NCBI GenBank assembly: GCA_913045445.1
Contig: CAJWQP010000003.1
Location: 6,860 to 70,859, forward strand
DNA: 64,000 nt
Direction: 5' to 3'
Source of the DNA: an uncultured Nitrospina sp.
GTDB lineage: Bacteria > Nitrospinota > Nitrospinia > Nitrospinales > VA-1
In this document: positions 14,583 to 63,603 of the stretch, piece by piece
Numbering within the stretch: the stretch's first letter is position 1
How the letters are laid out: the number at the start of each line of letters is the position of its first letter
Made by a program: the position numbers and the translations under genes
The notes under the pieces: model-generated
What the model saw: only the letters and a program-made list of their open reading frames with translations
What the model was told of the DNA's origin: nothing
Databases searched by the model: none

Positions 14583-15923
14583 TTATTCGCGGTATTCCAG
14601 GTGTAACCTGTAGATGAGGCCGGTGAGGTTTTCTTCGGGGGATTTGGCATCGGGTTTGGCGAAGCTCATGAGTTCGAACTGCATGGTATTTTCACCGCTT
14701 TTTAAATATTTCTCTACATCTATAATAAACGGTTCGGGATAACTCGCGCCGCCGTATTCCTGATTCAGTCCGACATCGTTGATGGTGATTCTGCATTCAT
14801 CATCAGCCCGCAAAAACAGATCGGCCCGCACGATGCAGTCTCCCTGGCAATTGATCGGCAAATCAAACTTAACCCGGAATCGGTTCTTGGTCCCTGTCTT
14901 GGCTTCTTCGAGCGATAATTCCTCACGCGCCCAGATCCATTGTGCGCCCTTGATGCTCCGCCAATCCGCATTCATTTTACAGATGGACGCTTCCTGCCAA
15001 ACTTCGGTCTCCTGGTTGAAGTAGTCGGTTTCGGGTCCGCTGGTGGCCATGAGCGCTTTGGTTTTAGTACCGAACAAATCTTCGGTAAGCATGTTGAAGG
15101 GTTTGCTTTCCTGCCACATGATGTCGCCCATCTCCCGCCAGTATTCGTAGATGCCGTCTTTCTTGTTGACGACAAGCATGCTCGGTCGCGGTGTGGTGCG
15201 CCCGAGGTAGGGTCCGATATCCGCCACGATGACCCCCTTGGCGCTTCCTTCATCGAGACAAATGAATGAGTGCGATGGGATGAGGTCGTAGGTGTGCACT
15301 GTGAGTTTGCCGCGGTCGGGATAACCGGGTTCGTTTTCGATCTCGTGTGCCACTTTCTGCAACAGCATGAGTGATGTGCGTATCTCGTTGAGGAAGGTCG
15401 CCTTGCCTGTCCCCTGCCGGGTGATGATCTCGACCACATACGCGCTTGGGTTCATGAGCAGTAGACGCACATTGGTTCCGTTCAAGATTTTTTTCTTGAG
15501 CAGTTCGGCGCTGGAAGTGGCAATGGAAAGCAGGGACGACCCACCGATGAACAGTTCCTTATCCGCTTGCTTGAACAGGCTCTCGAAGGACATGGACTGC
15601 CCGAGTTCGGATCGGTTTTTATATATGCCTTCTATGCCCAGTCGCACGGCATCGGGATTAACAATTTCCTGGAGTGCTGATTTGTATTCGCCGAAGGTCA
15701 GTTCGCGCAGGAACAGTTCGTAACCCAGCGACACCACGCCGATGAGTGACATCAGGAGCGCAAACTCTTTGATGGGGTGAAGCCATTCGCTGTGCGGGTC
15801 CATATATTTTCCCGCACCAATATAGACGGCTCCACCAACGAAAAATATGATGACGGCGAGAAATAAAATACGGTCTCGCACCCAGACCTTTACTGAAAGG
15901 CCCTCTGTGTTTGATTGTGACAT
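14583..15923 (-). CDS. Membrane protein of unknown function (2 TM, alpha/beta middle domain, C-terminal beta-sandwich-like domain)
   Basis: Two N-terminal hydrophobic helices. The middle region (LFIGGSSLL...VRLLLMNPSA) recalls DUF5919/PLD-like folds but has no HKD motif. The C-terminal region (AQWIWAREE...) looks like a carbohydrate-binding or galactose-binding type domain. Confidence 0.7.
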   Translation of the reverse strand: MSQSNTEGLSVKVWVRDRILFLAVIIFFVGGAVYIGAGKYMDPHSEWLHPIKEFALLMSLIGVVSLGYELFLRELTFGEYKSALQEIVNPDAVRLGIEGIYKNRSELGQSMSFESLFKQADKELFIGGSSLLSIATSSAELLKKKILNGTNVRLLLMNPSAYVVEIITRQGTGKATFLNEIRTSLMLLQKVAHEIENEPGYPDRGKLTVHTYDLIPSHSFICLDEGSAKGVIVADIGPYLGRTTPRPSMLVVNKKDGIYEYWREMGDIMWQESKPFNMLTEDLFGTKTKALMATSGPETDYFNQETEVWQEASICKMNADWRSIKGAQWIWAREELSLEEAKTGTKNRFRVKFDLPINCQGDCIVRADLFLRADDECRITINDVGLNQEYGGASYPEPFIIDVEKYLKSGENTMQFELMSFAKPDAKSPEENLTGLIYRLHLEYRE

Positions 15924-16053
15924 TTGTTGAAAATTTAGGGGTTAAAAAACGGCTAACGAATTGATCTTACAGGAATTCCGTTAGATTCACAATTGGGAAA
16001 TGTTTAGGGATTAAATCTCCCTAACCCCCTTTGAAAAGGAGGAGCCTGATCAT

Positions 16054-18351
16054 TCAACTCAATCCTGACTTGCGCCGGGTGAACCAGTCGAGAAAAAGGA
16101 ATGTGAGGATCAACCCATAAGTCCACCAGTTGTCCCAGAGGGAAATGCTTTTACTGTGGGTCTTCACTTCTACTTTTGGGTTGGGAAATTTGATAGCGGA
16201 AAGGTCTGTCTTCTCCGTCAGTACTTCATACCTTCCGCCGGAGACTTCGGCGATTCTCTTCAGCAGGGTTTCGTTGACTTTGGGTTTCTGGAATTCTGCG
16301 GTTTCGCTGAACACTGAGAATCCAACATCAGCCTCGCGTTTATCGCCGTCCACATCGACTTTAACTTTGACGGTGTAGAATCCTTCCCGTTGCGGTGTCC
16401 ACTGATGTGCGGCTTCTCCGTTGTTGTCTGTTTTAATAGTTTCGGTGATCTCTTCGCCCTCACGGGATTTTATAGTCAGATTCACTTCTATCCCGATGGA
16501 CGGGTTATAATCTTCCTGCAAAACGCGAATACGCAGAAGCGTGTCTTCTCCTTCTTCGTAACGTTCTTTATCCGTTTCGAGTTGCAAGAGCCGGGTTGCC
16601 GGATCGTCGGTCAACCAGGCGATGAGGTTATTCCAGAGTTTATAGTAGTGGCGTCCGCTTCCCCCTTCACCGACCCGGCGAAAGTTCCAGTTCCATGCGG
16701 AGTCGGTTGCCATCACTATGCTCCTGCCTTCGCCAACCCGCCCGGCGACCAGCACGGGATAGTTTTTATTTCCTTTATCAAACTCTGCCAGAACATGCGC
16801 GTTCTTGCGCGGCTTGAGTCCGGCATTGACTCCGTTCAGTTCCGGCAGGTCCTGCCATGCTTTGGCATTGGCAGACGATTCTTTTTCCAATTGCAGTATG
16901 GGGTGCCGCAGGAGACTCTTCCCCCGTTGCAGGTGAAACGATTCGCCAATAAAAGGTTGCGAGGTGCGTTCCAGTTGAACGGGCAAAATTGCCTCAATCG
17001 CGGTACGCTCGTATCCGCCGCCCTGAAACGACAACTCGCCGCCAACCATCATGAACGCGCCGCCTTGTTTCACATAGTTATTTATATTGCGCAGGTACTT
17101 CTTGTCGATGAACGGTTCGTAACTGAAATTCTGGAACACGATGAGGTCGAACGAGTTGAGGTAATCGCTGAACAACAAATTCGTTGGAAACGGAATGAGG
17201 CTTAACTCGGAGGTGGGCGAAGCGACATCATCGCCCATCGTCCGCAAGATGAAAAAGGATAGCAGGTCTACCTTCGGATGGTTCGCCAACACTTCGCGCA
17301 GAAAACGGGAGTCCCATGCGGGGCGTCCGTTCAGATGCAGGACGCGGATGCGGTCACGGATGACTTTCACTTGAAAGTCGCGCCGATTATTAGTCGCGAC
17401 CGACTCGCCGGCAAAATGCGGAACGGTGAGGGTATAAATGCGTTTACCCAATGCACCGGGTGTGAATTCCATTTCCACGGGATATTGATTTTGTCCTTCG
17501 CGCACTTCAACGATGCGGGAAAGCAGTATCGTATCGCCTTCCTTGAGCACCAGCGGTATGTTCTTGTTGCCCATATTCGATGCGCTGATGGTGACGGTCA
17601 ATCGCACGGGCTGATGGATGAAACCAAAGTCGGCTGAGTCCAGTTCCTCAATGGCCAGGTCCATAAACATCTCATTGCTCCCAGCCTGAAAGGTGTGGAC
17701 CGGACCTTCCCAATCCGCCAGCAGAGCCAACATTTCTGGAGAAACTGTTTCCGGTTCCATCGCCAGGTCAGCTCCATCTGAAAACAACATGACGCCCTGA
17801 AGGGATTTTCCTTCATAACGCTTGCGCAACTGGGAAAAGGTATTCTCCAGATCGGTGACAGCTTTTTTAGGCCGGTAACGGTTCCCCAATTCGGCATGAG
17901 ACGTTGGATTGATCTGGCTGGACGCAAAATAATAATCCACCTGAAATTTTTCCTTCAAGGACTCCAGCATGTTCCGGTTTTTCTCAAAGGTCCGACGCAC
18001 AAATTCGATGCGGGGTGTTTCCGAGGGAAATGTTTTTATCGACATGCTCTTGGTGTCATCCAGCAGAACAGCGATACTGTTTTTCAGAGTGTGGCTTTTT
18101 TTGAATTCCAGTTCGGGTTTCAACAGCATGAACACCAACACAGCAAAAGTGAGCGCACGTAATGCGATAAGAAATATTTTGCGGATGGGCGATTGTATTC
18201 TCTTCAGACTAGTCCAGAAAAACCACAAGGCGAGTGGTGCCACAACCAGCGCGAGTATCCACACCAGTGACAGGTCCTTCGCCACCATGTTCATAGCAAC
18301 CTCGTTAAACTGATCGGGGTCCAACCCGAACCATTCAATGAGAATATTCAT
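16054..18351 (-). CDS. BatA-like membrane protein (N-terminal double-TM, vWA-like segment, GATase1-like domain)
   Basis: N-terminal double-TM region, a DDTKS MIDAS-like motif, an RVLHLNGRPAWDSRFLREVL segment typical of amidotransferase-like membrane proteins, and a C-terminal TM helix. Confidence 0.7.
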   Translation of the reverse strand: MNILIEWFGLDPDQFNEVAMNMVAKDLSLVWILALVVAPLALWFFWTSLKRIQSPIRKIFLIALRALTFAVLVFMLLKPELEFKKSHTLKNSIAVLLDDTKSMSIKTFPSETPRIEFVRRTFEKNRNMLESLKEKFQVDYYFASSQINPTSHAELGNRYRPKKAVTDLENTFSQLRKRYEGKSLQGVMLFSDGADLAMEPETVSPEMLALLADWEGPVHTFQAGSNEMFMDLAIEELDSADFGFIHQPVRLTVTISASNMGNKNIPLVLKEGDTILLSRIVEVREGQNQYPVEMEFTPGALGKRIYTLTVPHFAGESVATNNRRDFQVKVIRDRIRVLHLNGRPAWDSRFLREVLANHPKVDLLSFFILRTMGDDVASPTSELSLIPFPTNLLFSDYLNSFDLIVFQNFSYEPFIDKKYLRNINNYVKQGGAFMMVGGELSFQGGGYERTAIEAILPVQLERTSQPFIGESFHLQRGKSLLRHPILQLEKESSANAKAWQDLPELNGVNAGLKPRKNAHVLAEFDKGNKNYPVLVAGRVGEGRSIVMATDSAWNWNFRRVGEGGSGRHYYKLWNNLIAWLTDDPATRLLQLETDKERYEEGEDTLLRIRVLQEDYNPSIGIEVNLTIKSREGEEITETIKTDNNGEAAHQWTPQREGFYTVKVKVDVDGDKREADVGFSVFSETAEFQKPKVNETLLKRIAEVSGGRYEVLTEKTDLSAIKFPNPKVEVKTHSKSISLWDNWWTYGLILTFLFLDWFTRRKSGLS

Positions 18352-19121
18352 CGCGAATGAGACCTTCTCAATCGTTCGAGAATGATGGGTAAGTGCACCA
18401 TGTCTTTTTTATAATCGAGCGTGAGCGCGTACATGATAATGTTCACGCCAAGTCTTATCGTGAGTTGCCTTTGTCTACTGCCCCCGCCGATGATGTCGTG
18501 GGACCATTGCCCCAGATTATCCCTTGCCCAAGCACCGCCAAAATCGTTTGTGGAATAAATGAGGACTGTTCGACCTTTGATTTTGATGCCTTCCATATAA
18601 GGATTGATCTGCTTGCGCCCCGTCACGCGATTGATCAGGTAAAAGGAACGAAAAATGGAATGGTCGCGGGAAATTTTCTGTAAGGGAATTTGCGGGAACA
18701 GTTGATTGATCATTTCGCGAACAGAGGTATCAAACTTTGAGTTGGCTTTGGCTGAATTGTCATCTATGAGGAGGAATCCGCCAAAGCTCAAATAATTGCG
18801 GAGTCGGTGCAACTCCTCCTGGGAGAAGGATTCAAATTTTTCATTCCCTGCCAGATAAATGAACGGATACCGATAGAGGTTGGGATCGGACAGTTTTATC
18901 TGAAGAGGTTCGCGGTTGACTTCGATAGATGTCCTGCGTGCGACCTGACCCAGCAAACTGCTTACGGCGGTCGGATGCGGATTAGGTTGCCCTCCTTGAT
19001 ACTTCACTTGCGGAATGGACAAGCTGGAGTAATCGGCATCAGACGCAGTGGGGAAAATCACTGAACCCAACAGGCTGACTATAAAAATTGCATTTGATAA
19101 GGTACGCATTGCCCCCCCCAC
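18348..19121 (-). CDS. DUF4159 domain protein (exported)
   Basis: Signal peptide and DUF4159-like motifs (YPFIYLAG, LRNYLSFGGFLLIDD, IYSTNDFGGAWARD). The stop overlaps the next start by 4 nt. Confidence 0.75.
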   Translation of the reverse strand: MGGAMRTLSNAIFIVSLLGSVIFPTASDADYSSLSIPQVKYQGGQPNPHPTAVSSLLGQVARRTSIEVNREPLQIKLSDPNLYRYPFIYLAGNEKFESFSQEELHRLRNYLSFGGFLLIDDNSAKANSKFDTSVREMINQLFPQIPLQKISRDHSIFRSFYLINRVTGRKQINPYMEGIKIKGRTVLIYSTNDFGGAWARDNLGQWSHDIIGGGSRQRQLTIRLGVNIIMYALTLDYKKDMVHLPIILERLRRSHSR

Positions 19122-20468: not shown

Positions 20469-21128
20469 ATGACCCTTTACGAACTGATGAACGAATATGC
20501 AATCGCAAACCCGAGCCCGCCGGAACAGGAGAGCCGAACGCCGGAACTGGGCATGAGCTTGTCCCTTCTCCATTCAAGCCTCATCGAATGCTACCTTGAG
20601 AGTGAAGAACAGGGAGGCACGCCTCGCCTGACGGCAAGCCCCGATGACATAGAGCCATCACACCTCAGTCATTTTATCGTGGCCTTTCTACCATTTAACG
20701 CAGTCACTGAAAAATCGGAGATCAACCACGTTCTGTTTGATGTCTATTCGTTTTTCGACTGGCTTAACAAAAAAGGGATTTCTCACGGACTCGCCAACAC
20801 AGATATTTCCCAACTGGTCAAGCAACTGAGCTCCAAGCAGGAACGATGTCTCAAGCTCAGCCAGCTACTCGACAACGAATCTGGGCGAATCATGAGCGAT
20901 CCGCCAGAAATTCAAAATACGCTGAACGATATTTTTTTAGTAGAAAAAATTGACGGCTACTTTGCTTTACTCAAAGGACGTCGTCAGGAAAACATTGTAC
21001 GACTGAAACTTCCACCCGACGCTCTTCCGCTCATCAAACTGAACGACTGCCTTGATCTTACCCTTGGCGATACCTCTGAAAAATGGGTGGTGCTTGAAGC
21101 GGGACAGGTCTATCCGAAAATACAGTAA
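20469..21128 (+). CDS. Hypothetical protein
   Basis: 219-aa ORF starting 4 nt after the aminotransferase stop. I recognise no motif. Confidence 0.55.
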   Translation: MTLYELMNEYAIANPSPPEQESRTPELGMSLSLLHSSLIECYLESEEQGGTPRLTASPDDIEPSHLSHFIVAFLPFNAVTEKSEINHVLFDVYSFFDWLNKKGISHGLANTDISQLVKQLSSKQERCLKLSQLLDNESGRIMSDPPEIQNTLNDIFLVEKIDGYFALLKGRRQENIVRLKLPPDALPLIKLNDCLDLTLGDTSEKWVVLEAGQVYPKIQ

Positions 21129-21148: not shown

Positions 21149-24100
21149 TTAACGATAATCGCCTGTCAGGTTAAACCCTGCCCAGTATGAAGGATGTGGG
21201 TAAAGACGCTTGACCAGCAACTGAGCCTTGCGCAAACTTTCTGCTTTGTTGCTTTCAGTGTAGTTACGATAGAAATGTTTGATAAGCACCGCTGTAGAAA
21301 TATCACTCACCCTCCAGAGTGATGAAAGAATGGAATGGGTCCCCGCATAAATAAAAGCCCTGTTGAGTCCCACCAGTTCATCGCCCCCTGTGATCTCTCC
21401 TAATCCGGTTTGGCACGCGCTTAAGGTTACAAGATCGGCTTTGATATCGAGTGAAAAAACTTCGTTCACTTCAAAATTACCATCGGCGGCTTCATCACGG
21501 GTGAGTTTCAATGCAGAAAACAACGGATTAACAGGATCAAACTCTCCATGTGAGCTTATGTGAATTATCTGGTACTCGCTTATATGCTCCTGCAACCAAC
21601 TTTCGCTGGCCTTGTCCCGCGTGAGAACATCTGTCTGTGGAAAATCCCATTTTATTGCATTGACTTCCATCTCCGCTAAAGGCAAATCGTAATTAAAATC
21701 TCCTAAATCCGGATTCCCTAACGCCAGCACTTTGGTGTCTCCACTCTTGTCATACTTACGGGCAAAGGTGAACTTCAGAACAGACGCGCTTGGCGAATAA
21801 AAAAGCGGGTGTTTTTCAACCAGGTAACTTTCACCATCGGTTAATGAAGCAAAAGAAATATAATGCAGATGACCATGAGGGACGATTCCAACGGCCCTTT
21901 TATTTTCGATAAGTAATTGGATGGGCGAGATCAACAGCTCATGCAGTTTTCGCGCCTGATCATCCAGCGGTGCCAGGTTCTGCATGCGATTGCGATAATC
22001 ATGAATCAAAATGTTCAGTTCTTTTTCTTTGACCGGAATCCGCCTGACTTCTATCTTCCCTCCTTTCACCACCCAGGCGACTAACTCATTTTCAGTGACC
22101 AGATATTCAACAAGCGCGATAGACTCGCCAAGAAGCTCATGAAGTTCTTTTAGCTTAATGGATTCAACAGTAACAAAACTTGAAATTTCAGGATTTTGTT
22201 CCTTGGCTTCAATCAGCAGGTCTTGGTAGTGGTTTCGTCCTCCGACAAGGTTTTCTGCAAATCGGGCGATTTCTGTCTCATCGTCCCTGGCTCTTGCAGT
22301 CCCCAAAGCTTCTTCAGCAAGCCTTATCGCCTTCTTCTGAGCTGTTAACCGGTCATAAAGTTTTTGACTGACATCGTTTTTCAAATTGATCTTTTGGTTA
22401 CCCAGCAGATCGATAAAACTTCTCGACTTGGCTCTTTCAGCAAATTCAAAAGATTCCTCGATGCTTTCGGTATCCAGAAGAAGCAGGACAAGTTCCTTGT
22501 ATACGTCTTGTTTGTCAGTGAGGAATCCGTTTTGAAACTCTTCCACCTTGATGGATGCCCTCATGCGATCAACGACCTTAACCGCCTTCTTATAAACTTC
22601 AACAGCGGCAATTCTATCTTCCAGTTTAACCAACGCAAAGCCTTCACCTCTTAGCGCACGCCATAACACTTCAAGAACGTTCAGGCGCTCAGCCATGTCA
22701 CGTGTTTCTTTAAAATGCGCCGCCGCTTTTTTCCATTGACCTCGCTTGAGGGAAAGGTTTCCCAATTCGAGCATGGACTTAACCAGGTTAGTTCGATTAC
22801 CGATGTCACTACTGAGATCGACCGCCTGAACAATATGTATCTCGGCTTCATCAAGATTTCCGAGACGCATATAACTCATGCCAAGGTTGCGATGGGTGTA
22901 GCCCTGCCCCCATTTTGACTTCAACTGGATATCACGTTCTAATGCCAGATTAAAAAATTTAATAGACTCTTCATAGCGTTTGTCTTTTCGGTGCACCAAT
23001 CCAATGTTGTTGTAGGCCGTGGCGACATCCAGCACAGACTGAACTTTTCCCGCAAGCTTCAGACTGCGTTGGAGATGAGTGAGGGCACGCTTGGAATCGT
23101 TGAGAGTCCAGTAAATAAGCCCCAGTGTGTTCTGAATAAAAGCCTGTTGCCTTTGATCGCCGGTAGACACGGCGATTTCCCAGGCTTCTTTTTGCAAACG
23201 AAATGCCTGCTGATAGTTCCCCTGGAACCAATGAGAGTTGGCCTGGTACAATAATGCCTTTGACAAGCCCGGTTTTAACTCCGACTTTTCAGTCAACGCC
23301 TGAGCCTGTTTATAAAATTCCAGCGCACGGGGGAAATCTCCTTCCTTTTCCGAGACCAGCCCCAACTCTAACAACGTTTCGGCTCTTTGTTCTGGTTGCT
23401 CTAACTGAGCGAACAGTTCGTTTGCTTCCGTAAAATATTTTCTGGCCTCGCCATAACGACTGAGCCGCAGATAATAGATTCTACCAATTCGTCTTAATTC
23501 GCGCCCACGATTAATGTCTTCCCCGATATCCTCGCTGATCTTCATCGAAGCGGTAAACGCTTCCAGTGCGCGGTCATAATCCAGCGCGTTCTCTTCAATA
23601 ATACCCAGAGTACTGTAGCTCTCAGCCAACTGATCCAGTATTTCATTTTCCTCGTAGATATTGAGAGCCTGCTTCAAATGATCCACAGCAGAATCAAATT
23701 CCTCAGCCCTTGAATATAGAATGCCCAGAAAGTAATGAGACTCCGCAAGCGCTTCAGGGTCTTCCTTCTTATTCATAATTGAGAAAACCGCTTTTTGATA
23801 ATGAATCGCTTTTGTGTAGTCTCCGTTGTTGTACGCGGCCTGTGAAAGTTTTTTATATATTTTTTCAGCGAAATCTTTTTTGTCCAGATAATCAAGAAGC
23901 ACCAGCGCTTTTTCAAATTGGTCTATCGCCACGAGCCAGTTACGCTGGGCAAACGCACCGGCACCCTGCTTCGCATTGACCATGAAATGCTCTTCCGCAA
24001 AGTCGCTTTTTTCTTCATCGCTCATTCCGGGAAAACCGTAGTACCGGTATCCTGCCCACATAAAATTATCAGGATGCCGTTTCGCTAATTCCTGTTGCGT

Positions 24101-27100
24101 GAGACGCAAAGATTCAGCCGGGCTCATCTTTCTAAAATTCTCGTAAAACAATTCCATGAAATCTTTTTCTATTTGCGAATCGAAAGATCCCGTCCGCAAT
24201 AAAATCCCGGGATATCCCTTGAATGACAATCCGGCAGTCAGAAGCGCGGTTGGAGAGAGGCTTATATCGGGATGGAATTCAGTGGTCACATCCGTCATAG
24301 CTATGAAGTGACCTGACAGCGATTGGGAAAATAAATCAGAAAGATTCAATCGCTCAAACTGACTCTTTCCGCGAGTGAGATTGATAAAGGAAATACGCGG
24401 ATCATGTCGTATCATCCTGACCGGGCTTCCCACATGAATCACTCCAAAGCTAGGCCAACGAGTTTTGAATGCCTCTACTTTGGCATTGGCGCCTGACATG
24501 GATTGCGTGGAAGTGAATACTGAAGCAGCTTTTTCGGAAATCGATTCTTCTACTGCTAAAAAACGCGAGTTGTATAGATTTTTTAAAGACTCTGCTGACC
24601 GAAATTGTTCCAGCGAAGAAATAAAGGTAACGGGGACCGATTCGATCAACCTTCGTCCATCAATCTGCAAAGCGGCCCAGGGAAGAAGCTCCAACTCCCC
24701 ATCGGCGAGTAAAATGAGCGACTTTGATGCGTTCACTTTTTCTCCAACCAGACGAAAAAGAACTTGCGAAAGGTATTCAACGTCAGCTGTGGCAACCTGT
24801 CCCGTGCCCCGCCCCAATCGCCTGATGGTTTCTGTCAATCGTTTGTCCAATGGCACCAAACCTCCACGCATTGAATCGGGACCCACTTCCCAGATTAAAA
24901 TACTGTCGCGCACGGTTTGGTATTTTATCAAAACTTCATTTTCACGAAGAAGGCTTTGTATCTCTTCAATCATGGGGACAGTTGCTGAGTAAAGAGCGAC
25001 CAGTTGTGAGTCATCCTCACGCGCCATCTCAAGAAACTCCGCGTACTCCTCCAGCAAAGCATCTTCTTCTTCCTGCGATGCAGTCTCGCTTGCCTGTTTG
25101 GAATAACTAAGGAATGCCTCCTGATACGCCACTCGGTCCTCGCTGGAAAACAGGGGTTCAGGCCTCAGCCTCACAAGCAGTTGTTGCCTCCCCTTCTCAG
25201 AGTAATTGAGCGCCTCGGTAAACCTTCTCTCCTTAAACAGCGCTCCAGTGATCGCCTGATACAAATCCTCCTGCATTCCAAGAAGCGCTTTTTCATTTGA
25301 ATTCCATTGCGGAGGTTGTTGCGAAAATAACTGCTCAGACTCCATCAACAGCTTTAACCTGTTTTCACCCGCCACCATCAAAGCCTGGAGGTAAAGGAGT
25401 TGCCATTGCCGACCTGCCGGGTAAATTTTCTCTGGAGATTCTGTCGTATTTCCAGCCAGATACTTAGTGAGCTCAAGGTTGTGACGCAAGGTCGGTTCAT
25501 AAGGTTCTTTTGGTAAATTGCTTTGCTCTAAAAGAATTAAAGCATCGCGAAACCTTCGAATGGATTTCTCCATCCATCCTTGTTCCTGCTTCAACGCATT
25601 CAAAGAATTAATTAAACTTAGTTTTTCATCCGCATGGGGCATTGAATTGGCTGGAACATGAAATGCCAGGTAGTGGTATAAAATACCAAGGAAGTTTTTT
25701 ATAAGGACGGGATACTTAGAAGCAACCACTGTTTTATTTTCTGCGGGTCGAATCGATTCCAACAAACTGGCGGCGTCCTCGATTTCTTTCTGCAATGATC
25801 CGATTGGCAAAATGCGACAACGAGTCAGTACTGCACGTCCTATATTTGCGGCGTTAACCATTATTCCATGCCGATTATTCAATTGACCGCTGAGATCATA
25901 GGACTTGCGAAAATAATCCAGACTCTTTTCGTATTTTCCCGACAGGTACAGATAGTTCCCTATCTGGTTCAGGAGAAGCGCTTTTTCTAAAAGGATGGGT
26001 ATGTTTTTTTCCGGGTCCAGATTTTCCGGAATAAACGCAAGTTTCTTTTTGAAATAATCCACCGCCTGATCGTACTCACCAAAATCACCATATATCTTGC
26101 CAATGTAGTGAAAGATAAGTTTCTGTTCGCCCTCCTTGTCAAATCCATAAGCAGCGGCTGTGGAATCGCTTCCCAGTCCGGCCTGGATATCTATATCCAG
26201 AAGCGCTGTCTTCTCTTTATCCTTCTTAACGAGGCCAAACTTTTCCAGATTTTCTATCGCTTTAAAATAATGGCCCAAAGCCTCATTCATCGTTTGCGTA
26301 GCATCAACACTCCCCTGGCTCAAGTCATAAAGGTTGTTAGCAATATTTCTAAGCGTTCTGGAAAATGAAACCTGATTCCCTGTCTGACGATGAAGCTCCA
26401 GAGTTCGCGAAAAAAATTCGACCGCCTTCTCATGCTCCCCCTTGTCCTGCCAGGCGAGGGCAATGCGATCATTGAGTTCTGCCATGCGCTGAAGTTCCTT
26501 TTTTCCTTCAGCGATCTTCAATGCTTTTTTAAACTGCGCCACCGCTTTGAGAGGGAAACCTGCTTTGAAAGCGCTTTCAGCATAGCGTTGATGAAATATT
26601 GCTTTCCGGTTCACATCATAAAAAGGGCGTTCTGTCTGTGCGCGTTCTCTATAGTAGTGGTAAGCAGTGAATGAATTATTGAGCAGGTAATGCCCGTTCC
26701 CCAGGTTCAACAACAGATTGGCCTCATTTTCAGGATCGGATTTTTCATCATTGAGCGCGAGAGCGACCTGGTATTCGTGGAGCGTGCGTTCCAGATATCC
26801 TTCGCCACTGGCCTGCCGTTCTTTCTGCTCGTAGACCCAGCCCAAAGTCTGATGAAAAAACACCTGTTGCGCGTTTAGCCCTAACGCAAGGGAAATTTCT
26901 TTCTCTGCCGCATCCAGATCAGGCGGACTCAAATAGGTGTAGGCCAGGCCAATCGCATAATGATCCACCGCCGATGATGGGCTGTTTTTCAATCGACTCT
27001 CATAAAACTCTATCGCCTTGTCTATTCTTTTAAGAGCTGAACTGGCTTCGACATGTCCTCTATGGCCTTCTACCGTTTCTGGACTGTGTTCGATGATTTT

Positions 27101-29164
27101 AAGAAAAGTCTTCAGGGCCAATTTTGTCTCGCCGACCCTCAGTTCCCATTTTCCTTTTTCGATGGCTTTAAGAACCCAGCCCTTTTGAGCAATCTGGCGG
27201 TTGGCTTGAATAGTTTCAGAGGCGTTGGCAACTTCTTGAAACACGCTCAAGCTTTTATCATAGTTCTCCTCTTCAGAGTAAATGTTTGCCAACGAAACCA
27301 GGGCCTTGAATCGGGCAGAAGACATATCGGAATAGCTTTCGACCGTCTTCCGATATGCTTCCTTCGCCAGTAGATTTTCACCGCTCAGGTAATACAATTC
27401 TCCAATTCTGTTTTGGACTGCCGCAGTCAAACGCATCGGCTCTTTGTATTTCTTAATAACAGCGTTCAGGCTGGACACCTTCTTCTCAAGCCTTGGACTG
27501 GACTCGAAAAGCTTGAAAATTTCATCTATGGATTTATTCGACCATTTTGCCACATCATTATAATCACGAACCACCTGCACGTAATTATCTACCAACCGTT
27601 CGCGGTCACCCACCAGAGAGTAAACCTTGCCGCGCGCATATGCGGCCTGAGCGGCCACATATCTGATTTTTGAGAATCCGGTTATTACCTTGTTATACCA
27701 GGCCAGAGCTTGCTCGGGTTGGTCCAGCATGAAGTTCAGGTTTCCCGACTCAAGTAAAGCACGGGCCACAACCTGAGCATGATTTTGATACCGCCCGGAA
27801 ATTTTTTCCAGGCTCAGCAAACCTTCTTTAATTTTGTTCTTATATGCCGTAGGACCATCGCTTTGAGATTCTTCCACACGCAAAAGCAAATGCTCAATTT
27901 CAGCCAACCCCTTATACAGTGAACCCTGTTGCAGAGTTTCAATCATCTCAGCATAGATACTCTGCGCTGACGACCCATGCCCCAGTTCCTGATAACCGCG
28001 AGCCATTCGGTATTGGATGCGCGGAAGTTCCTCTTCACCAGAAAATTGGAGCAAAAGGTTATTGAACCGCAGAAGACATCTATAGGAAGAGGACTCCTCC
28101 GGACAGGCAGAGGCAACTGCTTTCAACTCGGCCTCGTAACTGGATGACCGACCGCCCTCCAACTCTGGTGATAAAATTTGCCAGATGTCTATATTGTTTT
28201 TGGAGTCGGATGTATATATGACCTTTCCCTTCCCTGCTGAGACAGGAAGAAGATCATAGCTGGAACTATCCGTTAACTGCTGGAAAACTCCAGCGGACTT
28301 GCCATCAAACTGGACACTCCAGATATTGGGTCGATCATCAATAGTGAGTTGACCATCCAAATCAGTATCATCCTGATAACGAACAAAAAGAATCGATTTA
28401 CTGTCAGAGGTCCACCGTGGAGTGGCTTCTATAAAAGTTCCAGGAGAAAACGAAGTGAGACGAATATGGGTTCCTGATTGCATATCCATAACCCATATGC
28501 CAGCCTTTTCACCTGTTCCCAAATAGGCAAGAAAACGATTGTCGGGAGAAATGGATGGATTCAATCCATCCGCCCCAGGAACTGCTGACTTTTCTCCGGT
28601 CGCTATCTCTACTTTGAACACAGCTTTTCGTTTTGATTCTGGATTCAGCGAAGCGAAATAAATAAATTCCCCATCTGGCGACCAGGTGGGGTCCGTGTCC
28701 GGCGATTCAACTGTAGTGAGGCGGGTGAGCGCTGATTCGGGGTTTTCTACCGTCAGTTTTTCAATATCGAGGATGTAGATATCGCCCTTGGGGTCCGAAC
28801 GGTGAGAAACAAAAGCAATACGTTTGCCATCGGGAGCGAACGAGGGTGATGTGTCTGACGCACTGTGAAATGTAAGTTGCCTGTCTGGTGGATGAACACC
28901 GGGCCCCAGCGATTTCAACCAGATATCCAGGTTTCCCGATTGATCGGAAGCATAAACGAGAGTCGTTCCATCAACAGACACGGAAGGTGCAAAATCTTCT
29001 CCCGGATTGGATGTTATCTGAACAAGCGTTACCTGAGCAGGTGCTACCTGAGCAAACCTATCAAACGCATTGGCGGTTTGTATTCCAAAGAAGAAAAAAC
29101 CGGTCAAACAGAAAGTCAGAATCAAGGCCGCACATAGTTTTTCTGAATTTTGATCAGGGAGCAT
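21149..29164 (-). CDS. Giant exported TolB-like beta-propeller / TPR / degenerate CHAT / TPR / CHAT protease-family protein
   Basis: Single 8016-nt ORF with a signal peptide (..QTANA/FD). PD40-type repeats (SPSFAPDGKRIAF, DPTWSPDGEFIYF) span about 28180-29040. Two long TPR arrays follow. The C-terminal CHAT has IIHISSHGEF and VTLSACQTG. The internal CHAT-like copy lacks both catalytic residues. Confidence 0.85.
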   Translation of the reverse strand: MLPDQNSEKLCAALILTFCLTGFFFFGIQTANAFDRFAQVAPAQVTLVQITSNPGEDFAPSVSVDGTTLVYASDQSGNLDIWLKSLGPGVHPPDRQLTFHSASDTSPSFAPDGKRIAFVSHRSDPKGDIYILDIEKLTVENPESALTRLTTVESPDTDPTWSPDGEFIYFASLNPESKRKAVFKVEIATGEKSAVPGADGLNPSISPDNRFLAYLGTGEKAGIWVMDMQSGTHIRLTSFSPGTFIEATPRWTSDSKSILFVRYQDDTDLDGQLTIDDRPNIWSVQFDGKSAGVFQQLTDSSSYDLLPVSAGKGKVIYTSDSKNNIDIWQILSPELEGGRSSSYEAELKAVASACPEESSSYRCLLRFNNLLLQFSGEEELPRIQYRMARGYQELGHGSSAQSIYAEMIETLQQGSLYKGLAEIEHLLLRVEESQSDGPTAYKNKIKEGLLSLEKISGRYQNHAQVVARALLESGNLNFMLDQPEQALAWYNKVITGFSKIRYVAAQAAYARGKVYSLVGDRERLVDNYVQVVRDYNDVAKWSNKSIDEIFKLFESSPRLEKKVSSLNAVIKKYKEPMRLTAAVQNRIGELYYLSGENLLAKEAYRKTVESYSDMSSARFKALVSLANIYSEEENYDKSLSVFQEVANASETIQANRQIAQKGWVLKAIEKGKWELRVGETKLALKTFLKIIEHSPETVEGHRGHVEASSALKRIDKAIEFYESRLKNSPSSAVDHYAIGLAYTYLSPPDLDAAEKEISLALGLNAQQVFFHQTLGWVYEQKERQASGEGYLERTLHEYQVALALNDEKSDPENEANLLLNLGNGHYLLNNSFTAYHYYRERAQTERPFYDVNRKAIFHQRYAESAFKAGFPLKAVAQFKKALKIAEGKKELQRMAELNDRIALAWQDKGEHEKAVEFFSRTLELHRQTGNQVSFSRTLRNIANNLYDLSQGSVDATQTMNEALGHYFKAIENLEKFGLVKKDKEKTALLDIDIQAGLGSDSTAAAYGFDKEGEQKLIFHYIGKIYGDFGEYDQAVDYFKKKLAFIPENLDPEKNIPILLEKALLLNQIGNYLYLSGKYEKSLDYFRKSYDLSGQLNNRHGIMVNAANIGRAVLTRCRILPIGSLQKEIEDAASLLESIRPAENKTVVASKYPVLIKNFLGILYHYLAFHVPANSMPHADEKLSLINSLNALKQEQGWMEKSIRRFRDALILLEQSNLPKEPYEPTLRHNLELTKYLAGNTTESPEKIYPAGRQWQLLYLQALMVAGENRLKLLMESEQLFSQQPPQWNSNEKALLGMQEDLYQAITGALFKERRFTEALNYSEKGRQQLLVRLRPEPLFSSEDRVAYQEAFLSYSKQASETASQEEEDALLEEYAEFLEMAREDDSQLVALYSATVPMIEEIQSLLRENEVLIKYQTVRDSILIWEVGPDSMRGGLVPLDKRLTETIRRLGRGTGQVATADVEYLSQVLFRLVGEKVNASKSLILLADGELELLPWAALQIDGRRLIESVPVTFISSLEQFRSAESLKNLYNSRFLAVEESISEKAASVFTSTQSMSGANAKVEAFKTRWPSFGVIHVGSPVRMIRHDPRISFINLTRGKSQFERLNLSDLFSQSLSGHFIAMTDVTTEFHPDISLSPTALLTAGLSFKGYPGILLRTGSFDSQIEKDFMELFYENFRKMSPAESLRLTQQELAKRHPDNFMWAGYRYYGFPGMSDEEKSDFAEEHFMVNAKQGAGAFAQRNWLVAIDQFEKALVLLDYLDKKDFAEKIYKKLSQAAYNNGDYTKAIHYQKAVFSIMNKKEDPEALAESHYFLGILYSRAEEFDSAVDHLKQALNIYEENEILDQLAESYSTLGIIEENALDYDRALEAFTASMKISEDIGEDINRGRELRRIGRIYYLRLSRYGEARKYFTEANELFAQLEQPEQRAETLLELGLVSEKEGDFPRALEFYKQAQALTEKSELKPGLSKALLYQANSHWFQGNYQQAFRLQKEAWEIAVSTGDQRQQAFIQNTLGLIYWTLNDSKRALTHLQRSLKLAGKVQSVLDVATAYNNIGLVHRKDKRYEESIKFFNLALERDIQLKSKWGQGYTHRNLGMSYMRLGNLDEAEIHIVQAVDLSSDIGNRTNLVKSMLELGNLSLKRGQWKKAAAHFKETRDMAERLNVLEVLWRALRGEGFALVKLEDRIAAVEVYKKAVKVVDRMRASIKVEEFQNGFLTDKQDVYKELVLLLLDTESIEESFEFAERAKSRSFIDLLGNQKINLKNDVSQKLYDRLTAQKKAIRLAEEALGTARARDDETEIARFAENLVGGRNHYQDLLIEAKEQNPEISSFVTVESIKLKELHELLGESIALVEYLVTENELVAWVVKGGKIEVRRIPVKEKELNILIHDYRNRMQNLAPLDDQARKLHELLISPIQLLIENKRAVGIVPHGHLHYISFASLTDGESYLVEKHPLFYSPSASVLKFTFARKYDKSGDTKVLALGNPDLGDFNYDLPLAEMEVNAIKWDFPQTDVLTRDKASESWLQEHISEYQIIHISSHGEFDPVNPLFSALKLTRDEAADGNFEVNEVFSLDIKADLVTLSACQTGLGEITGGDELVGLNRAFIYAGTHSILSSLWRVSDISTAVLIKHFYRNYTESNKAESLRKAQLLVKRLYPHPSYWAGFNLTGDYR

Positions 29165-29489
29165 ATAAATCCAACCGATTTCAAAAGAGAACCATTTTGA
29201 TAAACTACCCCATTATACAGCAAACTTGAGAGTAGCAAAAAAATGGAACCCCTGTAGCCCGACAAACCCCATGGCCCACAAAATATTGATTTTAAAAGCC
29301 CCGTTAGATACAAAACGGCTCTTCGCCAAAAAAAACGAGCGCCCGCAAGCGCTAGAAAAGCGCAGAGAGGGGTCTAGAAAACATTCACTTGAAAAAAGCG
29401 ATGAAATGCTTTAAAAGTCCCAATAATAGTGGGAAATCGGGTAGAATGCGTTTTTTCTGATGAAACTGTCGCTAAAGTAGGTCGCAACT

Positions 29490-55142: not shown

Positions 55143-55330
55143 CTCATTTCCGAGACTCACTTCAAAAACATATTCATTAACTCCCCCGCAATGCCGTGCA
55201 AAAATATTTTTTTGAACCTGTCAAGGACAGGTGGGGAATCTGTATACCGCTTCAGGCTTCCTTCCGGAGAAGGCATGCACACCACGGCAGAAGGTCATCC
55301 CCGTTTGCAAAATGTTGGCTCAAAAAATAC
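55143..55330 (-). ncRNA. ssrS: 6S RNA candidate
   Basis: It occupies the conserved zapA-ssrS-5FCL position. About 188 nt can be drawn as nested helices: UUUUUGAG/CUCGGAAA, AACAU/AUGUU and UGCCGUG/CACGGCA. The segments AUGC-CCUUC-UCCG-GAAGG-AAGCCU and CACCUGUCCUUGACAGGUUCAA parallel E. coli 6S as I recall it. The ends are approximate. Confidence 0.6.
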
Positions 55331-55411
55331 AACTTTTACACGTACAAAACAGGGAAGCAAAAATCATAGCTTCCGTGCGTATACTAGCATAAAGGGTCAG
55401 CGCTAACAAGG

Positions 55412-63197: not shown

Positions 63198-63603
63198 CGG
63201 ACCGAAGCAAACCATAAGCCGGGTTTTGTTCTCCCCTGATGGACGAATCCAGCAAGGAAGAGGTGATCATCAATCTAGGCCTGCCGTTGCCGACAGGCTC
63301 AAGCAATCAACCCGAAAGTTTCGGGCGAGCCACCCTCAAACACTTTCCTATTTGATCTTGCTCCGGATAGGGTTTGCCAAGCTACCACCGTCACCGATGG
63401 TACTGGTGAGCTCTTACCTCACCTTTTCACCATTGCCGCCGCTAAAAGTTTGCACTTCCACCGGGTGGGCCGTTTCTTTTCTGTTGCACTTTCCTTGAGG
63501 TCACCCCCACTCCGCGTTACGGAGTATCCTGCTCTGTGGAGCCCGGACTTTCCTCTCTCCCGACCTGAAGCCGAGACAGCGATCACCCGGTTTACTTCGG
63601 AAC
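63198..63603 (-). ncRNA. rnpB: RNase P RNA, bacterial type A
   Basis: The reverse complement contains GAGGAAAGUCCGGGCUCCACAG, GUGCAACAGAAA, GGUAAGAGCUCACCAG, CCGGAGCAAGAUCAAAUAGG, GCUUGAGCC...GCCUAGAU and ACAAAACCCGGCUUAU. The P1 helix is CCGAAGUAAACC (63600-63589) paired with GGUUUGCUUCGG (63213-63202). The ends are good to about 5 nt. Confidence 0.92.

Follow-up and report, generated by a model that had tools for sequence, protein, structure and literature searches.

A giant exported Nitrospina protein with a dead and an intact CHAT domain: predicted architecture, family and possible function in the cell envelope

Why should a bacterium export a protein of 2671 amino acids (aa) that carries the same caspase-like CHAT protease domain twice, once with its catalytic residues and once without them? 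The question is raised by a gene in a stretch of 64,000 nucleotides (the window) from contig CAJWQP010000003.1 of an uncultured Nitrospina sp., in which one open reading frame (ORF) at 21149..29164 encodes an N-terminal propeller followed by long TPR arrays and two CHAT domains. Most of what is known of bacterial CHAT proteases comes from immune systems of the cytoplasm, together with a single periplasmic anti-sigma factor; by contrast, the protein described here is a 300-kDa exported and widely conserved version with a built-in pseudo-protease. Following up an earlier note that had been made from the sequence alone, we established by computation its architecture, its export signals, the dead and live state of its CHAT domains, their folds, the duplicated TPR-CHAT unit, the distribution of the family and a gene cluster found in other phyla. 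With moderate confidence we favour the reading that the giant protein is a regulated periplasmic cysteine protease combined with a TPR/propeller scaffold, that it acts in envelope homeostasis and that its pseudo-protease has a regulating or positioning role.

Two TPR-CHAT units in one chain

The gene and its two repeated units are located as follows.

21149..29164, minus strand: whole ORF, 2671 aa plus the stop codon at 21149-21151, no interruption
24029..26854, minus strand: module 1 (aa 771-1712), a TPR array, a helical lead-in and a catalytically dead CHAT (hhalign against module 2)
24029..24937, minus strand: pseudo-CHAT fold unit (aa 1410-1712; Pfam CHAT, AlphaFold) with Pro1581 (24422-24424) as His-equivalent and Val1626 (24287-24289) as Cys-equivalent
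21152..23977, minus strand: module 2 (aa 1730-2671), a TPR array, a helical lead-in and an intact CHAT (hhalign; alignments of stand-alone cyanobacterial TPR-CHAT proteins)
21158..21958, minus strand: active-type CHAT (aa 2403-2669; Pfam CHAT) with His2539 (21548-21550) and Cys2584 (21413-21415)

The single 8-kb ORF proposed in the earlier note is intact, and Pfam together with alignment recovers all six parts that had been named (signal peptide, PD40 propeller, TPR, dead CHAT, TPR, live CHAT). Along the chain the signal peptide and the propeller are followed by an extra TPR region, the dead TPR-CHAT unit and the live TPR-CHAT unit, with Pfam TPR families at aa ~380-1100 and ~1730-2200. The predicted mature protein has an isoelectric point of 5.7 and a mass of ~299 kDa, and the GC content across the ORF (45-46%) is ordinary for the window.

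CHAT (PF12770, gathering cut-off 24 bits) was matched twice, with 234.9 bits for the whole protein and 47.3 bits (E 2.5e-12) for the middle copy at aa 1465-1709, which falls inside the region 24025-24940 (aa 1409-1713) where it had been placed before. The two CHAT modules find each other in BLASTP (E 2e-11), and a profile-profile alignment is concordant. In both alignments SSH(2539)GEF faces GSP(1581)VRM and LSAC(2584)QTG faces ITDV(1626)TTE. The earlier note was therefore right about the loss of both catalytic residues from the middle domain and about the codon positions of His2539 and Cys2584; its printed register was off by one residue, the replacements being His to Pro and Cys to Val.

An alignment of 118 full-length homologues extends this pattern to the whole family. 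His2539 and Cys2584 are invariant (117/117, one sequence having a gap), and the same dyad is intact at 20/20 further genome loci. At the His-equivalent position of the middle domain the alignment contains P, R, K, W, G or Q. Aligned to the hidden Markov model (HMM) of the active domain, the middle domains show the nucleophile Cys in 0/118 and a His at the His position in 1/118. The middle domain could still have kept catalytic residues elsewhere, but no Cys or His is conserved anywhere in aa 1330-1720 of the 118 homologues. The live CHAT is the best-conserved region of the protein (76% identity among Nitrospinota, 49% with distant members), and the pseudo-CHAT is the least conserved one (41% and 19%).

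A caspase-like alpha/beta fold is predicted for both domains by AlphaFold and Foldseek. Modelled together with 28 homologues, aa 1335-1725 reached a predicted local distance difference test score (pLDDT) of 92.1 and a predicted template-modelling score of 0.91, and the best PDB matches of this pseudo-CHAT model were Csx29/TPR-CHAT (E 2e-12), human separase (2e-9), the periplasmic domain of DdvA (4e-9) and SAVED-CHAT. A sequence-only search of the PDB gave no match for the pseudo-CHAT, which was identified there by the fold search only. The model of aa 2225-2671 (window 21152-22492) has a pLDDT of 82.5 and also matches Csx29, DdvA and separase, with gingipain and caspase-4 being found for the live model only. 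Among solved structures Csx29 comes closest to it in sequence, and the HGE and AC(E/Q)T motifs line up. A stretch of 12 residues that immediately follows the catalytic Cys (QTGLGEITGGDE, aa ~2586-2597) has a pLDDT <50 in an otherwise confident domain, which fits a mobile active-site loop in the model. Among the significant Foldseek matches to both CHAT modules are also large proteins of the eukaryotic ciliary central-pair apparatus (7sqc_R1, 7n6g_1N, 9ijj_A; E 1e-5 to 1e-9).

The proposed pairing of a pseudo-enzyme with an enzyme in one chain, as the earlier note had suggested, is supported by the dead/live pattern throughout the family and by the confident model of the dead domain as a CHAT fold. 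One could instead regard the giant protein as a mainly non-catalytic periplasmic scaffold whose TPR arrays and propeller would space or tether the envelope layers, the CHAT domains being there for binding. Its ~1,800 TPR-like residues would suit such a role, as would a CHAT that is dead already and further eroded in some lineages, and the linkage of the gene in other phyla to a bridge-like AsmA-family protein (see below). However, the dyad is invariant in all homologues examined from several phyla and no other part of the chain is as conserved as the live CHAT, a pattern that is hard to explain without catalysis, so that we consider the scaffold unlikely.

Both CHAT domains end a longer repeated unit of ~940 aa. 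With hhalign (aa 340-1725 against aa 1726-2671), aa 771-1712 and aa 1730-2671 proved collinear in an alignment of 869 columns (E 2.6e-79). This register scores 729 compared to 253 for the best shifted one, and thus the match is more than TPR repeats sliding over each other. Modules 1 and 2 share ~16% identity, whereas TPR-CHAT proteins from outside the family share 25-28% with module 2. Since the dead unit is farther from the live unit than these outside proteins are, either a duplication within the gene or the joining of two TPR-CHAT genes could have produced the pair: the repetition proposed in the earlier note stands as two collinear units, its origin by duplication rather than fusion does not follow.

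Export signal, propeller and family

The N-terminal part of the chain contributes four further features.

29066..29164, minus strand: signal peptide (aa 1-33), MLPDQNSEKLCAALILTFCLTGFFFFGIQTANA with FD following the putative cleavage site; sole hydrophobic segment of the protein
28160..29041, minus strand: PD40 beta-propeller (aa ~42-335; PD40 E 8e-39)
28076..28105, minus strand: Cys354...Cys363 pair just after the propeller, a candidate disulfide; both columns are Cys in 79/118 homologues
26855..28147, minus strand: first TPR-rich region (aa ~340-770; TPR_12, TPR_19, TPR_14 and SNAP matches), N-terminal to the repeated modules and outside their best in-register alignment

The cleavable signal peptide of the earlier note was found again as a lone hydrophobic segment at aa 10-28 (Kyte-Doolittle 2.35), followed by ANA and, after the putative cleavage, F; every other segment stays at <=1.3. 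Judged by the same heuristics the N-termini are signal-peptide-like in 103/115 orthologues, with a lipobox in ~10. The mature chain of 2,638 residues has 4 cysteines, namely the C354/C363 pair, one variable Cys and the catalytic Cys, and we found no C-terminal sorting signal in the protein. Because of this lone N-terminal signal, the conserved signal peptides and lipoboxes, the few cysteines, the lack of a sorting signal and the presence of a PD40 domain, the giant protein is very probably periplasmic and may be lipid-anchored in some lineages. Such a location has a precedent: DdvA from M. xanthus has a periplasmic TPR-CHAT (PMC11506125), which makes the location of the giant protein unusual, not new.

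DdvA also offers a different model, in which the giant protein would sense in the periplasm and signal by cutting itself, the mechanism proposed for this anti-sigma factor, and would not cut other proteins. DdvA is a periplasmic TPR-CHAT inside a signalling protein and is among the best structural matches of both modules, and the low-confidence loop after the catalytic Cys would be expected for a resting, activatable site. Yet the giant protein has neither an anti-sigma domain nor an internal transmembrane helix or a cytoplasmic part, its N-terminal signal being the sole hydrophobic segment, and no extracytoplasmic function (ECF) sigma factor or other regulator is conserved beside its gene. 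We therefore regard a self-cleaving sensor as quite unlikely.

The propeller shows five PD40 repeats or stretches by Pfam within aa 47-330 (search with the N-terminal 340 aa) and six by eye. Precomputed Tricorn_N and Tricorn_2nd matches exist on orthologues, and DPPIV_N and Peptidase_S9_N match weakly. Tricorn_N and the two weak matches would agree with a nutritional or bulk-turnover peptidase in which the propeller gates unfolded peptides, as in tricorn, DPP-IV and the prolyl oligopeptidases. In the giant protein, however, propeller and live protease lie ~2,000 residues apart in the chain, and the conserved neighbours of its gene in other phyla have to do with membrane biogenesis rather than with transport or catabolism. 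Cultured Nitrospinota are autotrophs that oxidise nitrite, a lifestyle that also speaks against bulk turnover. Furthermore, the characterised TPR-CHAT and separase-type enzymes are site-specific (PMC11506125), and we hold a bulk peptidase to be very unlikely.

A database search revealed >100 full-length homologues of 2,500-2,900 aa. We define this family by collinear full-length homology, an N-terminal export signal and the invariant C-terminal dyad, and the window protein fits into it. About 75 clusters at 50-59% identity carry, where labelled, Nitrospinota names (Nitrospinaceae, Nitrospina sp., Ca. Nitronauta litoralis), and distant members at 25-41% identity have labels that include Entotheonellaceae, Desulfobacteraceae and KSB1; query coverage is 98-100% in both sets. 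Further members came from a scan that took one genome for each species, namely from Nitrospira sp. T9, Nitrospirales, delta proteobacterium NaphS2, Magnetococcales and Desulfuromonadaceae as well as Geobacter sp. OR-1, Geomonas oryzae S43, Desulfococcus and others. The profile of the middle domain matched 98,785 of 1.84 billion representatives, that is, the general CHAT superfamily, with dozens of two-CHAT giants of 2,500-2,900 aa at the top of the list. As the same full-length protein recurs in >100 independent assemblies, several of the Nitrospinota homologues lying on 3-4 Mb contigs, an assembly chimera, which the earlier note had asked to be considered, is excluded. Best hits and shared synteny place the window most likely in an uncultured member of Nitrospinota. 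The window protein itself differs from the 90%-identity cluster representative P0001 by five substitutions (A1004V, M1623I, E1838K, T2289A, A2363V), and the window is thus a strain variant of an ENA sequence. The family could not be named in the earlier note, and indeed its members are labelled only 'CHAT domain-containing protein'; with >100 of them the family is nevertheless already present in databases.

Gene neighbourhoods and proposed function

In other phyla the giant gene belongs to a cluster with the order DUF748/AsmA-like, DUF1318/YdbL-like lipoprotein, giant PD40-TPR-CHAT, SH3_3 and Peptidase_M48, the genes of which overlap or are separated by short gaps. The DUF1318 (YdbL family) gene is located directly upstream of the giant gene on the same strand at 22/25 non-Nitrospinota loci, preceded at 21 loci by a DUF748/AsmA/YhdP-like gene encoding 1,000-1,350 aa, and SH3_3 and Peptidase_M48 genes follow directly downstream at 14 loci. 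The cluster (L003, L005, L006, L008-L019, L021, L025, L026, L028, L031, L058 and L090) ranges over Nitrospirota, Desulfobacterota, Magnetococcales, KSB1 and an Entotheonella-like lineage. All partners carry export or membrane-anchor signals: an N-terminal transmembrane helix in the AsmA-like protein, a lipobox (…GC, cleavage, TLAxV…) in the DUF1318 protein and signal peptides in the SH3 and M48 proteins.

The YdbL-like partner has ~190 aa (e.g. L031:6696-7280, L014:7201-7788) and shows a lipobox and, N-terminal to the DUF1318 domain, a conserved stretch of the form C-TLAxVxVxVVSERTALENQVLGxYN. YdbL from E. coli is a soluble protein of about 108 aa. A PDB sequence search with the DUF1318 partner gave no match, and no YnbE-like gene was seen. 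The DUF748 (P0150, P0151) and DUF1318 (P0448) partners from Ca. Nitrotoga, a betaproteobacterium, are 65-74% identical to those of Nitrospira, which suggests from sequence comparison that the cluster was transferred between these unrelated nitrite oxidisers. In E. coli, AsmA-family proteins and YdbL are involved in phospholipid transport and outer-membrane homeostasis (PMC11126948, PMC13464000), and YdbL levels are set by proteolysis (PMC13464000).

Taken together we propose the following model. The C-terminal CHAT is predicted to be a working caspase-like cysteine endopeptidase, and the middle CHAT would be an ancient pseudo-protease that kept the fold but not Cys catalysis. The TPR solenoids and the propeller might dock envelope partners or substrates. 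By analogy, the dead CHAT could be a regulatory or substrate-positioning partner of the live one, modelled either on the pseudo-protease domain of separase or on the neighbouring protomer that has been proposed to complete the DdvA active site. The enzyme would then cut periplasmic or outer-membrane-associated proteins site-specifically within envelope homeostasis. Protease activity, substrates and the part played by the dead domain are what we infer from these features, and the envelope function is taken from the relatives. A more specific version, possible but doubtful, would make the giant protein the proteolytic and regulatory subunit of a hitherto unrecognised, periplasm-spanning envelope machine around an AsmA-like lipid-transfer bridge, together with the YdbL-like lipoprotein, SH3 and M48 proteins. 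Its dead and live CHAT would form an intramolecular caspase-like heterodimer gated by partners that bind to the TPR arrays, and Nitrospinota would have kept the protease as a core gene after dispersal of the operon.

Several findings weigh against the favoured reading of a regulated envelope protease with a pseudo-protease partner. With the HMMs of the DUF748, DUF1318, SH3 and M48 partners nothing was found in the 64-kb window or at the Nitrospinota loci L001, L002 and L007, and the closest outgroup (L089) likewise lacks the partner genes near its giant gene. Because of this absence, the envelope-cluster argument for the window protein is borrowed from relatives at 25-41% identity. The pseudo-CHAT profile detects only fragments in Nitrospirota and Desulfobacterales, though at the expected place, and nothing at three Geobacteraceae loci; this erosion speaks against the pseudo-CHAT being a partner that the live domain cannot do without. 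For signal-peptide cleavage we relied on heuristics and conservation instead of a trained predictor. Finally, our literature search found no paper on the giant architecture, the family or the gene cluster and no experiment on any member. Because of its low conservation and its erosion in some lineages, the dead domain appears, as far as sequences tell, to be ancient but under weaker constraint.

A DUF748 homologue is encoded elsewhere in one Nitrospinaceae metagenome-assembled genome (L087), with no DUF1318 gene adjoining it, and a database search with the DUF1318 partner was saturated by matches to Nitrospira relatives. In Ca. Nitronauta the giant gene is preceded by a 310-aa gene, which turned out to be unrelated to the 317-aa gene that follows the Nitrospinaceae DUF748 gene.

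What is new is the combination of a giant exported chain, an N-terminal propeller, a conserved dead/live tandem of TPR-CHAT units and, in other phyla, a five-gene cluster. The assembly and regulation of AsmA-like bridges is an open issue in outer-membrane biology, and a protease whose gene is tightly clustered with those of an AsmA-family/YdbL-family pair, as in at least four other phyla, is a testable lead. The window itself holds the stand-alone gene only, and this lead rests on a predicted function. The family might also serve as a bacterial model of pseudo-protease/protease pairing within one chain.

In the window the giant gene is flanked by a divergent Proton_antipo_M gene on one side and by a convergent class-V aminotransferase gene and a family-less 219-aa protein on the other. 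This flanking arrangement recurs in two of the three Nitrospinota loci compared with the window, and for this reason the giant gene appears to be vertically inherited in them. It is probably a single-gene transcription unit. The upstream region contains the following feature.

29165..29489, no strand assigned: intergenic region shared with the divergent Proton_antipo_M gene, with TATAAT at 29212-29217 and a hairpin with a T8 tail at 29338-29353 on the minus strand, both being consensus matches only

The hairpin (AGCGCTTGCGGGCGCT followed by T8) is terminator-like and lies ~175 nucleotides (nt) upstream of the start of the giant gene. No minus-strand gene ends nearby and the TATAAT is located downstream of it; the hairpin may be a chance match.

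A quite different function would be that of an anti-phage or conflict effector which, like Csx29 in Craspase, SAVED-CHAT or the gasdermin-activating CHAT proteins, cleaves a toxin or the cell's own proteins upon infection. Csx29 is indeed the closest solved relative of both CHAT modules in structure and sequence, and SAVED-CHAT was matched too. However, Csx29, SAVED-CHAT and the gasdermin-activating effectors are proteins of the cytoplasm, whereas the giant protein carries an export signal. Its gene has no cas, CBASS, gasdermin or NTPase genes nearby, and the 64-kb window has no tandem repeats or repeat array. PADLOC returned only a generic TPR match, and the Csx29 model scored 59 against a cut-off of 300, all in agreement with the earlier statement that there is no CRISPR context. 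The conserved synteny across Nitrospinota and the apparent vertical inheritance of the gene also speak against an effector, as does a search of 72,556 plasmids and 50,697 phage records that brought up no full-length relative. With no array, no specific PADLOC match and no such relative, a mobile-element or defence origin was rejected, and of all functions considered here a defence effector is the one we find least probable.

Some other observations concern the surroundings. The 219-aa ORF (20469-21128, plus strand) has no Pfam or PADLOC match, starts 4 nt past the class-V aminotransferase gene and ends 20 nt from the stop codon of the giant gene; a gene of 223-226 aa without recorded Pfam family occupies the same position in L001 and L002 and is likened to it by position only. 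At 14583-19121 on the minus strand a DUF4159 protein (257 aa), a 765-aa GATase1_like/Big_1 protein and a family-less 446-aa protein form a block that is kept at the same place in L001 and L002. The window also contains class A RNase P RNA (63200-63598, minus strand, 316 bits) and 6S RNA (55179-55358, minus strand, 100 bits), and thus represents ordinary chromosomal core sequence.

Comparison with known systems

Csx29 of the type III-E Craspase shares with the giant protein a TPR array followed by a caspase-like CHAT domain with a His-Cys dyad and is the best match of both modules (sequence E 1e-4; fold E 1e-12 to 1e-16 with a template-modelling score of about 0.55-0.62). It has about 700 aa, is cytoplasmic, bound to Cas7-11/gRAMP and activated by RNA. 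In contrast, the giant protein is four times larger and exported, and it has a propeller, two TPR-CHAT units and no CRISPR context. The curated Csx29 model NF041237 gave 59.1 bits, below its cut-off of 300, and beside the giant gene we found the aminotransferase, Proton_antipo_M, DUF4159 and other genes but neither Cas7-11/gRAMP nor a CRISPR array.

DdvA (PDB 8rot) is the sole structurally described periplasmic TPR-CHAT, with its His-Cys dyad in the resting state (PMC11506125), and matches both giant modules by structure (E 4e-9 and 7e-13). It combines a cytoplasmic zinc-binding anti-sigma domain, a transmembrane helix, an ECF sigma partner and one CHAT, and it dimerises (PMC11506125). The giant protein differs from it by having a signal peptide only, no regulator partner, and a dead and a live CHAT in one chain. 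Neither a second hydrophobic segment nor an N-terminal cytoplasmic domain as in the anti-sigma architecture was found in it, and the counterpart of DdvA is therefore limited to the periplasmic TPR-CHAT part.

Separase resembles the giant protein in its very large size and its long region of helical repeats; it is a site-specific CHAT-related protease that is regulated by bound partners, and its fold matches both modules (E 1e-9 to 1e-11). In separase the active protease domain follows and adjoins a pseudo-protease domain. Unlike the giant protein it is eukaryotic and cytoplasmic or nuclear; the giant protein has two complete TPR-CHAT units, with ~700 TPR residues between its CHAT domains. Peptidase_C50 (PF03568) gave no match on the window protein at E <= 0.1, so that the likeness is found at the level of the fold only, and a precomputed PF03568 match exists on three distant homologues.

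Stand-alone cyanobacterial TPR-CHAT proteins align end-to-end with module 2 (aa ~1732-2669, 25-28% identity) and appear from this alignment to represent the building block of the giant protein. They consist of a single module of ~900 aa without propeller or pseudo-protease module, and the plasmid-borne examples that we found are mostly cyanobacterial.

TolB is likewise periplasmic with a PD40 beta-propeller, and TIGR02800 is the best NCBIfam match over the propeller repeats. The 'TolB-type' propeller of the earlier note holds for these repeats and not for TolB identity, as this equivalog model reached 113.9 bits (cut-off 343.15) with its best stretch at profile positions 228-310 of 418. Moreover, the signal peptide of the giant protein leads straight into the propeller, the TolB N-terminal domain being missing, and neither tol nor pal genes adjoin the giant gene.

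The operon logic of ydbH...ydbL, from the YdbH-YnbE-YdbL bridge of E. coli (PMC11126948, PMC13464000), is mirrored in the clusters of other phyla, a likeness that belongs to the neighbours of the relatives and not to the window. Compared to this bridge, the DUF1318 lipoprotein of ~190 aa has an extra N-terminal region, and the giant protease, SH3 and M48 genes are added.

In summary, the giant protein is a member of the CHAT family that is distinct from Csx29 and TolB by curated thresholds, from DdvA by architecture and also from separase. By analogy we infer that its mode of action is closest to that of the regulated, site-specific proteases of the TPR-CHAT/separase group.

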